DNA from: a virus
Taxonomy: Duplodnaviria > Heunggongvirae > Uroviricota > Caudoviricetes
Strand: one strand, 5' to 3'
DNA: 44,558 nucleotides
IMG/VR virus record: IMGVR_UViG_2541047901_000009
Part shown: piece by piece, positions 21,153-22,432 of the stretch
How positions within the stretch are numbered: the stretch's first letter is position 1
Layout of the letters: every line of letters begins with the position of its first letter
Position numbers and translations under genes: made by a program
Notes under the pieces: model-generated
What the model saw: the letters and a program-made list of their open reading frames with translations, nothing else
What the model was told of the DNA's origin: nothing
Database searches by the model: none

Positions 21153-21285
21153 AAGATCTAGCATGCTGCTGAGAACTGATGAGAACAATAAAAGAGTGTT
21201 TTTCTAAGGTTGACACAACACTCCATTTGAAGTGAATATAATGATTACTTAACTGGCAAAAAAACATCCTCACTAATTGGAGCCA

Positions 21286-22377
21286 ATGGATACACGCATG
21301 TCAGACATTCTAATTACTTATGATGAACGGAAAGATAAATTTGAGTCCTATGCCCTTACTCTTAAATCGTTATTAACCACGTTAATTCGCAATGAAAAAA
21401 TTTCAATTCACTCACTTGAATCAAGAGTTAAAACAAAAAAAAGCCTTGAAGGTAAGATTAATAAAAAGGGAAAATACAAGTCTATAGATGATATTACTGA
21501 TATCGTTGGTATCAGGATCATCACACATTATGCTGATGATGTTGATAAGATAGCTGCTATAGTTGAAAAGGAGTTCACCATTGACCAAGAGAACTCTATT
21601 GATAAAAGAACCTCAATTGCGCCTGATAAATTTGGTTACCTATCACTTCATTATATAGTAACTTTAAACTCAACCAGAACAAACTTAAAAGAATATGAAG
21701 TATATAAAAACATCAAAGCCGAATTACAAATACGATCAATCCTTCAGCATGCCTGGGCGGAGATTGAACACGACATTGGTTATAAGTCGGCCACAGGACT
21801 GCCTAATGAAATAAGAAGATACTTTTCACGCTTAGCTGGTCTTTTAGAAATGGCCGATGATGAATTTATTAAAATCAGAAAAAAGATTTCTGAACGGCAG
21901 AAAGAGGTTGCAAAAGAACTAGAGCAAGGAACTAGTGATTCAGTTTTAGATATTTTCACTTTGGATGAATTCTTAAACACAAGTCGAATTATGAGTGAAC
22001 TTTCAGAAGAGATAAAAGAAAAAACAGGAATCACAGTACATGGCCGATACAAGGATAAAGATTTGGGATACCTACTAAATGGTTTAAACCTAGCCAACAT
22101 AACTACAATAGAACAACTCAATCAAAAACTCTCACAAATGAAAAAGCAGATCGTAGATAGAATATTCTGCTTCGGAGAACCATTTATTAATTATTGCAGA
22201 GAAACCCCCATGCCAAAAGAAGCTCTTTTGAGTTATTTATGTCAAATTATCGTTGCGTTTCAAAACTCACCTTCGTTAGAATCTGAATTTAATAACAAAG
22301 CAGGTTTAAATCTGAAAAACAGCAATATCTCCGATTTTTTCTCGAATATAAGAGAAAACATAAGCACACAACCTTAG
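21286..22377 (+). CDS. RelA/SpoT-domain nucleotidyltransferase, about 363 aa; candidate fused toxSAS toxin-antitoxin (CapRel-like)
   Basis: N-terminal synthetase-type motifs: R-V-K-x-K-x-S...K (SRVKTKKSLEGK), DIVGIRIITH and ELQIRSILQHAWAEIEHDIGYK. There is a C-terminal extension of about 170 aa and no separate adjacent antitoxin ORF. Divergent from V and convergent with S. Start codon uncertain (ATG 21286 or 21298; the ORF-track TTG at 21277 is unlikely). Confidence 0.7.
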   Translation: MDTRMSDILITYDERKDKFESYALTLKSLLTTLIRNEKISIHSLESRVKTKKSLEGKINKKGKYKSIDDITDIVGIRIITHYADDVDKIAAIVEKEFTIDQENSIDKRTSIAPDKFGYLSLHYIVTLNSTRTNLKEYEVYKNIKAELQIRSILQHAWAEIEHDIGYKSATGLPNEIRRYFSRLAGLLEMADDEFIKIRKKISERQKEVAKELEQGTSDSVLDIFTLDEFLNTSRIMSELSEEIKEKTGITVHGRYKDKDLGYLLNGLNLANITTIEQLNQKLSQMKKQIVDRIFCFGEPFINYCRETPMPKEALLSYLCQIIVAFQNSPSLESEFNNKAGLNLKNSNISDFFSNIRENISTQP

Positions 22378-22406
22378 CTTTAGTTTTAACGTATTCTAAC
22401 AGAAGA

Positions 22407-22432
22407 CTGCTGCCGGTAAGCACCGGCAGCAG
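22407..22432. terminator. Strong hairpin between the convergent RelA/SpoT gene and S
   Basis: 11-bp perfect stem CTGCTGCCGGT-aagc-ACCGGCAGCAG. Flanks are only weakly T-rich. Confidence 0.45.

Follow-up and report, generated by a model that had tools for sequence, protein, structure and literature searches.

RelQ and RelP (SAS1 and SAS2; YjbM and YwaC in Firmicutes) are non-toxic stress-response synthetases. They are encoded by core stress genes, and each consists of a single domain of ~210-230 aa that assembles into homotetramers. The oligomerisation interface of these enzymes is formed by their C-terminal helices (PMC11782079). Bicistronic toxSAS (FaRel, FaRel2, PhRel and PhRel2) have a RelA/SpoT pyrophosphokinase domain, are carried on mobile elements or prophages, and are accompanied by an adjacent, often overlapping, antitoxin gene.

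CapRel (e.g., CapRel-SJ46; PDB 7ZTB) is a toxSAS enzyme with a variable sensor domain (PMC9712102). It is a prophage-encoded single chain of 373 aa with no separate antitoxin gene, in which an N-terminal synthetase is followed by a variable C-terminal domain. This domain is a pseudo-zinc-finger (a three-stranded antiparallel sheet plus a helix), and a YXXY motif plugs the ATP site. Pag1B/GRel, the toxSAS effector of type I PANGU, is reported to be an inert homotetramer that needs an activator; alone it is described as non-toxic, and as making pppGpp without modifying tRNA (10.64898/2026.04.06.716658). It comprises a synthetase domain, a helical linker and an acidic, DNA-mimicking C-terminal domain, and it depends on an adjacent gene for a YejK-like nucleoid-associated protein.

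The locus studied here lies in a window of 44,558 nucleotides, by which we mean the whole stretch of viral DNA that was analysed. The window is a P2-like prophage inserted beside trhP/ogrK. Its E. coli host is of the S88/MS7163 type, and window positions 1-24324 are 100% identical to the S88 and MS7163 genomes. The features of the locus are the following.

20517-21152, minus strand: P2 gene V (baseplate spike), which borders the cargo slot on the left.
21210-21242, plus strand: promoter-like elements upstream of the synthetase gene, read by eye from the sequence.
21213-21221, strand unassigned: ACACAACA-type motif upstream of V, conserved in the prophages of five genera.
21298-22377, plus strand: coding sequence of a two-domain small alarmone synthetase-like protein (359 aa, WP_001280130.1).
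21298-21792, plus strand: N-terminal SYNTH domain (aa 1-165), with Pfam RelA_SpoT over aa 42-165.
21793-21933, plus strand: long helix (aa 166-212) that aligns with the RelQ/RelP C-terminal helices (pLDDT 63-83).
21934-22374, plus strand: family-specific C-terminal domain (aa 213-359, 147 aa), with a globular predicted fold.
22180-22224, plus strand: cluster of replacements among E. coli alleles in the C-terminal domain (aa 295-309).
22406-22433, strand unassigned: GC-rich hairpin in the spacer of the convergent genes, resembling a terminator of S on the minus strand.
22458-22910, minus strand: P2 gene S (tail completion/virion morphogenesis), which borders the cargo slot on the right.

An earlier, sequence-only reading of this DNA had described an AT-rich plus-strand gene, lying alone and in the opposite orientation between the minus-strand late genes V and S and with no separate small ORF as a partner. 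The ORF map agrees with this description. A single long plus-strand ORF (21277-22377) occupies the space between V and S, the GC content of the insert is 0.33 versus 0.55-0.60 in the flanks, and the intergenic DNA around the gene holds only chance ORFs of 22-23 aa, none of them a credible small ORF. The range given in that reading, 21189-22432, does contain the gene, but it consists of intergenic DNA plus the gene, the coding sequence itself being 21298-22377. Its start at ATG 21298 is backed by the RefSeq annotation, which labels the protein 'GTP pyrophosphokinase', and by the N-termini of homologues; ATG 21286 is a second possible start. An RNA antitoxin was also considered and rejected: the Rfam scan returned no family above threshold, its one sub-threshold microRNA match being taken as chance, and no antitoxin-like RNA repeat array was found at the gene.

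Upstream of the gene lies a perfect TTGACA at 21210-21215, with two candidates for the -10 hexamer: GAATAT at a spacing of 18 nt and a perfect TATAAT (21237-21242) at a spacing of 21 nt. In these elements either the spacing is non-optimal or the -10 hexamer is weak, and a scan of the upstream region for the sigma-70 consensus reported no promoter. The -35 hexamer of this putative promoter is overlapped by the ACACAACA-type motif, which, from what is known of P2 late promoters, we take to be probably part of the activator site of the Ogr-dependent late promoter P_V. At the other end, the hairpin has a 12-bp stem, a 4-nt loop and a folding energy of -25 to -29 kcal/mol, beats every shuffle, and sits between the two convergent stop codons. 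The strong hairpin that had been proposed to be shared with S is hence real as a structure between the two genes, but its terminator score is confined to the minus strand (that of S), since the plus strand has no T-run after it; it may nevertheless stop the plus-strand transcript too. A similar backbone hairpin is present in the 66-bp S-V spacer of phages in which the slot is empty, e.g., fiAA91-ss.

The synthetase gene is a cargo gene (moron) of P2-like prophages: it is inserted between core genes, has an atypical GC content (0.33 versus 0.58) and is polymorphic in presence and absence. Among 5426 complete E. coli genomes it was found in 14, in each case between V and S, and one of these copies is frameshifted in an A8 run. 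Some of the carriers are extra-intestinal pathogens, S88 and MS7163 for example. P2-like prophages of Klebsiella, Serratia, Citrobacter and Yersinia carry homologues (43-56% identical) in this slot, likewise oriented against V and S. In an even sample of 1588 E. coli records, ~60% of the slots are empty, with only the 66-bp spacer, ~20% hold an insert of ~870 bp, which is the size of P2's own orf30 insert, and others hold unrelated hypothetical genes. The slot is also empty in fiAA91-ss, P24C9 and pro483, and no deposited phage genome, P2-like phages included, was found with the synthetase gene.

P2 orf30 resembles the synthetase gene in its S/V position, opposite orientation and AT-richness, whereas it encodes an unrelated protein of 261 aa that has neither an informative domain nor a PADLOC match. 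In the window prophage, the old/tin and Z/fun slots, the two classical ones of P2, are filled with cargo genes as well. One of these genes matches the PADLOC candidate defence family PDC-S39 (1e-85), and the other has no defence match. Hotspots in the late region of P2 are reported to carry defence systems (10.64898/2026.02.27.708500).

The N-terminal half had been credited with clear (p)ppGpp-synthetase-type motifs, and this claim is well founded. Pfam family PF04607 (RelA_SpoT) matches with an E-value of 1.9e-21 and 76.9 bits against a cut-off of 27, and it is the sole significant Pfam family in the 359 aa, with no hydrolase, TGS or ACT domains. In an alignment of 38 full-length homologues, residues R43, K45, S49, K53, D68, G71, R73, Y114, H118, E142, Q144 and R146 are invariant. 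These include the tyrosine (Y114) and aspartate (D68) whose inspection had been proposed, and together they make up the ATP-donor site and the G-loop (RxKxxxSxxxK, DxxGxR, GYxSxH and ExQxR) and line up with the RelQ/RelP motifs. The catalytic residues also align with the donor-site residues R64, K66, S70, K74, D90, G93, R95, Y128, E145 and Q147 of FaRel2 (PMC11782079). By its domain content and its intact residues, the protein belongs to the small alarmone synthetase class of the RSH superfamily, and as far as its residues tell, the synthetase domain is catalytically intact.

The best matches of the protein in both sequence and fold are RelQ and RelP. They are the nearest solved structures by sequence, with E-values of 1e-15 for the single sequence and of 1e-17 to 1e-18 for the profile, and all five synthetase motifs are held in common, including the EHxxxYK segment, as are the C-terminal helices, to which a long helix at aa 170-210 of the window protein corresponds. 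When the AlphaFold model of the full-length protein (pLDDT 87, pTM 0.62) was submitted to Foldseek, RelQ/RelP came first (E 5e-10, TM 0.78-0.80 normalised to the target) and CapRel came 40th. The two groups differ in that RelQ/RelP lack the extra 147-aa C-terminal domain and are core genes, while the window gene is mobile and prophage-borne. A grouping with housekeeping RelA/SpoT homologues, which the sequence-only reading had named as an outcome that would speak against it, is therefore half the case: RelQ/RelP are the nearest characterised relatives, yet no more than ~25% of residues are identical, and with 73.8 bits the protein stays far below the cut-off of 320 of the NCBIfam YjbM equivalog model NF053588.

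The proposed CapRel-like identity fares less well. The two proteins are alike in being prophage-encoded single chains of similar length (359 versus 373 aa), with an N-terminal synthetase, a variable C-terminal domain and no separate antitoxin gene, but their enzyme domains are only distantly related. CapRel (7ZTB) is matched with an E-value of 0.2 by phmmer and of 2e-3 by profile, only aa 134-204 being covered, and at E<=10 the family profile still retrieves none of the PDB structures of other toxSAS. The pseudo-zinc-finger has no counterpart in the window protein, whose C-terminal domain is instead a predicted bundle of nine helices. The YXXY motif is absent from the protein and occurs in eight of the 38 homologues, at unaligned positions. 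The CapRel label fails in each of the family-specific tests that were run, and judged by sequence and model the protein would not be a relative of CapRel. A tRNA substrate is unlikely for this enzyme.

Unlike the bicistronic toxSAS, the window gene has no antitoxin gene beside it. The assumption that a toxic synthetase must have a neutralising partner, from which a fused antitoxin had been deduced, is itself no longer safe, given that Pag1B is reported to be silent without any antitoxin (10.64898/2026.04.06.716658). Pag1B, compared here by description only, has a similar order of parts, with a synthetase domain, a helical linker and a C-terminal domain. It differs in its dependence on an adjacent nucleoid-associated protein, the window gene being flanked by V and S. 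As to charge, the C-terminal domain of the window protein has a pI of 5.0 and a net charge of -4, but charge is not conserved in the family, where the pI ranges from 4.3 to 9.5. Membership in gRel/Pag1B was considered, and the evidence against it is indirect, namely the missing nucleoid-associated protein neighbour and the filing of the S88 protein as divRel in 2011.

The C-terminal ~170 aa had been taken for a probable fused antitoxin or phage sensor. A separate, fast-evolving domain is indeed present, of 147 aa, but the features of CapRel are absent from it. Its model is all-helical, with nine helices (pLDDT 93, pTM 0.88), and the search for solved structural relatives found none, the fold not being seen in the PDB. 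The full-length model, with a pTM of 0.62, shows no confident docking of this domain onto the active site.

The two halves of the protein evolve at different rates. Among the prophages of the five genera, identity is 56-72% in the N-terminal domain, 57-82% in V and 48-67% in S, versus 22-37% in the C-terminal domain; across the family it is 60% and 23% for the two domains. The same contrast is present within E. coli, where five near-identical alleles differ at six synonymous sites and one nonsynonymous site in the first 212 codons, and at three synonymous and 14 nonsynonymous sites in the last 147 (Fisher p 0.004 versus the first 212). The nonsynonymous fraction in the C-terminal domain is 0.82, versus about 0.78-0.79 expected by chance. 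Seven of the replacements (P295L, N298D, N298S, C300Y, P304T, M305I and A309V) make up the cluster at aa 295-309, where the family alignment has a gap-rich loop. N298 was replaced twice independently, once by D and once by S, in different alleles.

Taken together, the rate contrast and the allele counts indicate purifying selection on the enzyme, whereas the C-terminal domain appears to change no more slowly than the neutral rate, though its predicted fold stays well defined. Diversifying or near-neutral evolution of this domain is thereby suggested, and the near-neutral nonsynonymous excess is compatible with relaxed constraint. Divergence of the N-terminal domain at the rate of V and S fits a long co-residence with the phage backbone. 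A fast C-terminal domain joined to a conserved enzyme is the pattern that would be expected of a regulatory or sensor module, and the same pattern has been reported for the sensor domain of CapRel (PMC9712102). A toxSAS with a fused sensor or regulatory domain is plausible, and the rate contrast between the halves strengthens it.

An exhaustive HMMER search with the profile of the C-terminal domain retrieved a family of at least 841 clusters at 50% identity, in which the domain is always fused to this synthetase; a word-indexed search gave none and was uninformative. The family has thousands of members, distributed among Gamma- and Betaproteobacteria, Firmicutes, Actinobacteria, Bacteroidetes, Cyanobacteria, Acidobacteria and other groups. 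The possibility that the domain is a module common to other types of effector was rejected, as it is found only behind this synthetase: shorter matches are N-terminally cut fragments, and the hits to two giant eukaryotic coiled-coil proteins are spurious, being due to repeats.

When the ORFs around 80 genomic loci from many phyla were clustered, no neighbour was conserved beyond single genera, which indicates that the family has no antitoxin, hydrolase or nucleoid-associated protein as a partner and agrees with the lone gene of the window. No nucleoid-associated protein family was found among 113 neighbour proteins either. These immediate neighbours, from 62 dereplicated loci, are mostly housekeeping or regulatory, and given only a handful are of defence type, no enrichment in defence islands is claimed. 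Individual contexts include a Bacillus homologue that adjoins HsdR, Abi_C, McrBC and RES genes, and Pseudomonas homologues that share an integrase island with an AAA_15 ATPase or have an SMC-type ATPase for a neighbour.

PADLOC v2 has no entry for the family. The PADLOC family PDC-S33 matches the window protein with an E-value of 1e-16, over profile positions 48-237 of 349 and in the synthetase domain only; all 38 homologues match it equally weakly (best 1.4e-20), none over the full length. A literature search on WP_001280130.1 and on PDC-S33 found nothing. In the 2011 RSH census, E. coli S88 has one SAS besides RelA and SpoT, filed in the unclassified bin 'divRel' rather than with capRel or gRel. 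Given the single copy in S88 and the order of accessions, we infer that this entry is the present protein. The protein is best described as one of an uncharacterised family of two-domain SAS that went under divRel in the past; its C-terminal fold is unseen in the PDB, and its gene occupies the S/V slot.

The reading that we prefer, tentatively and with slightly more doubt than belief, is that of a self-controlled, partner-free alarmone synthetase whose variable domain senses a cue of infection and arrests growth. The moron, carried by the lysogen in the S/V slot, would encode a stand-alone, self-regulated nucleotide pyrophosphokinase. Its N-terminal 210 aa would act as a RelQ/RelP-like module, in which the RelQ-type helix may mediate oligomerisation, and the C-terminal domain would keep the enzyme off or tune it. 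This domain would recognise a cue derived from infection, most likely a protein of a superinfecting phage. Once triggered, the enzyme would move pyrophosphate from ATP to a purine nucleotide. The likeliest product is (p)ppGpp, because of the affinity to RelQ/RelP and because the synthetase domain is not basic, and (pp)pApp is possible. Growth would then stop, the infection would be aborted and the lysogen population would be protected. Such a system may be CapRel-like in its logic while standing outside the CapRel family, and by analogy its chemistry may be nearer to that of the pppGpp-making Pag1B/GRel.

The observations that favour the preferred reading are the complete and invariant catalytic motifs, the RelQ/RelP affinity in sequence and fold, the lone gene with no conserved neighbour or RNA match, its place in the V/S slot of five genera, the polymorphism of that slot, and the rate contrast and allele counts, set against a C-terminal domain that folds confidently and is kept in at least 841 clusters. 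The defence and mobile contexts in Bacillus and Pseudomonas, the PDC-S39 match, the report on P2 hotspots and the precedents of CapRel and Pag1B point the same way. Those that disfavour it are the non-toxic nature of RelQ/RelP, the mostly housekeeping neighbours, the absence from PADLOC v2 and the weak PDC-S33 match, the near-neutral nonsynonymous fraction, the lack of confident docking in the full-length model, the frameshifted copy and the lack of a carrier among deposited phages.

The RelQ/RelP affinity is shared ground with another explanation, in which the protein is a non-toxic accessory SAS acting in lysogenic conversion: it would raise (p)ppGpp under host stress and alter tolerance, persistence or virulence, with no role in defence. 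An antitoxin would then be unneeded, since host SpoT would remove the product. We regard this as unlikely, if worth serious attention. The closest characterised relatives are stress-response enzymes, neighbourhoods across phyla are mostly housekeeping rather than enriched in defence, the 2011 census files the extra SAS of S88 as plain divRel, and S88 and MS7163 are extra-intestinal pathogens. A patchy and mobile distribution, with 14 carriers among 5426 E. coli genomes and always the V/S slot, sits poorly with it, however, and an amino-acid turnover confined to the C-terminal domain is hard to square with the sensing of a conserved host metabolite. That both classical P2 slots also hold cargo, one gene matching PDC-S39 and the other no defence family, likewise tells against it.

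A further rival is a true CapRel-like fused toxin-antitoxin, which would pyrophosphorylate the CCA end of tRNA and be restrained by an in-cis antitoxin on the ATP site until released by a phage structural protein, e.g., the capsid. The single, partner-free and prophage-borne chain of about CapRel's length agrees with this, as do the fast C-terminal domain beside a conserved enzyme, on which CapRel offers a parallel (PMC9712102), and the presence of the G-loop tyrosine and donor-site arginines. Given the distant enzyme domain and the lack of a pseudo-zinc-finger and of the YXXY motif, we consider it quite unlikely. A role in the phage life cycle is very unlikely in our estimate. The gene would couple host nutrition to the lysis-lysogeny decision or to induction, or remodel host metabolism during lytic growth, and its long stay in the P2 backbone of five genera, where its N-terminal domain has diverged as fast as that backbone, and its position next to the late promoter region of V could both be so understood. 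But the gene is absent from ~60% of related E. coli prophages and from every deposited P2-like phage and is thus dispensable, close relatives in the family are found outside prophages in many phyla, and the orientation opposite to the late operons, together with promoter-like elements of its own, fits expression in the lysogen.

A stronger form of the preferred reading holds that the family is a new class of single-protein antiviral sensor-effectors. It would combine a RelQ-like synthetase, kept inactive perhaps as a RelQ-type oligomer, with a hypervariable helical domain triggered by a protein of a superinfecting phage, would abort infection by making (p)ppGpp or (pp)pApp rather than by acting on tRNA, and would have co-diverged with P2-like phages in the little-studied S/V slot across Enterobacterales while being present in many phyla. 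This extended version is doubtful. If the preferred reading is true, the CapRel design would have been reached a second time with an independent structure, an alarmone-type enzyme and a variable sensor being united in one protein. With an enzyme module nearer to the housekeeping (p)ppGpp synthetases, the line between stress signalling and immunity would be blurred, and the S/V (orf30) slot of P2-like phages would be a further place for defence cargo. If the protein is a non-toxic accessory synthetase instead, it would be a modest lysogenic-conversion gene of some extra-intestinal pathogenic E. coli. In either case, it belongs to a large and wholly uncharacterised family. As to the slot itself, strain 730V1 holds a 357-aa gene there which, in spite of its similar length, is unrelated to the synthetase gene and not a divergent allele of it.

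The S/V slot, between late genes S and V, carries different cargo in other E. coli, and the DNA bordering it could be compared across P2-like prophages. The features concerned are as follows.

Window 21196-21221: ACACAACA-type motif upstream of V
Window 21436-21443: A8 run inside the cargo gene
L002 (Klebsiella P2-like prophage) 7867-7910: backbone hairpin (GCCGCCGG...CCGGCGGC)
L098 (E. coli 09-02E) 4714-5454, minus strand: 245-aa hypothetical protein, S/V slot
L099 (E. coli 730V1) 4717-5790, plus strand: unrelated 357-aa hypothetical protein, S/V slot

In comparison with the upstream regions of loci L002, L089, L090 and L091, the ACACAACA-type motif is kept upstream of V in P2-like prophages of all five genera (Escherichia, Klebsiella, Serratia, Citrobacter and Yersinia). 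Given the motif's overlap with the cargo gene's -35-like TTGACA, the sequence suggests that the V and cargo-gene promoters lie back-to-back. In Klebsiella the backbone hairpin flanks the cargo gene on its V side, whereas E. coli has a hairpin on the S side (22406-22433); hence, the cargo seems to have entered, or to have been exchanged, at differing points relative to the S terminator. The 357-aa gene of 730V1 has the same opposite orientation as the window's cargo gene, while the 245-aa gene of 09-02E runs in the direction of the late genes, and a Pfam search of both proteins returned no informative match for either.

One of the fourteen E. coli copies of the cargo gene (locus L100, NZ_CP062865.1) has lost 1 bp from the A8 run, and its annotation lists a pseudogene together with a 175-aa 'hypothetical protein'. 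The deletion may be a genuine inactivation of the gene, the mark of a site prone to slippage, or an error in sequencing. The metagenomic family member P0257 (449 aa) retains the C-terminal domain, but its catalytic motifs are degenerate, with RxK, GYxSxH and ExQxR each lost, and its linker holds an insertion of about 130 aa; it is possibly an enzymatically dead derivative. The very small Klebsiella pneumoniae plasmid NZ_CP058965.1 (3508 bp) encodes at 2438-3040 a protein that shares 49% identity with the enzyme half over aa 8-208; the match ends at the linker, which suggests a different C-terminal domain or none.

Elsewhere in the window prophage, cargo and insertion sequences are found at the following positions.

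13505-15038, minus strand: DUF5677 protein (280 aa) and short tyrosine-recombinase-like protein (228 aa)
24597-25616, within 24325-25700: IS110-family transposase gene, breaking up the lysis-gene region
32136-34438: IS21-family pair istA/istB, between the terminase and portal genes
36007-37941, minus strand: DUF7380/DUF4209 protein (643 aa), flanked by replication gene A and the portal gene

The first pair, flanked by the tail-fibre assembly and sheath genes, occupies the P2 Z/fun slot, and a PADLOC search returned no match for either protein. The 643-aa gene lies at the classical P2 old/tin hotspot, and its product matches PDC-S39, a PADLOC candidate defence family (E 1e-85). The window prophage is likely to be defective. 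The IS110-family interruption coincides exactly with the end of identity to S88 and MS7163, at 24324. The major capsid gene is whole here, while ISEc12 splits that of S88.
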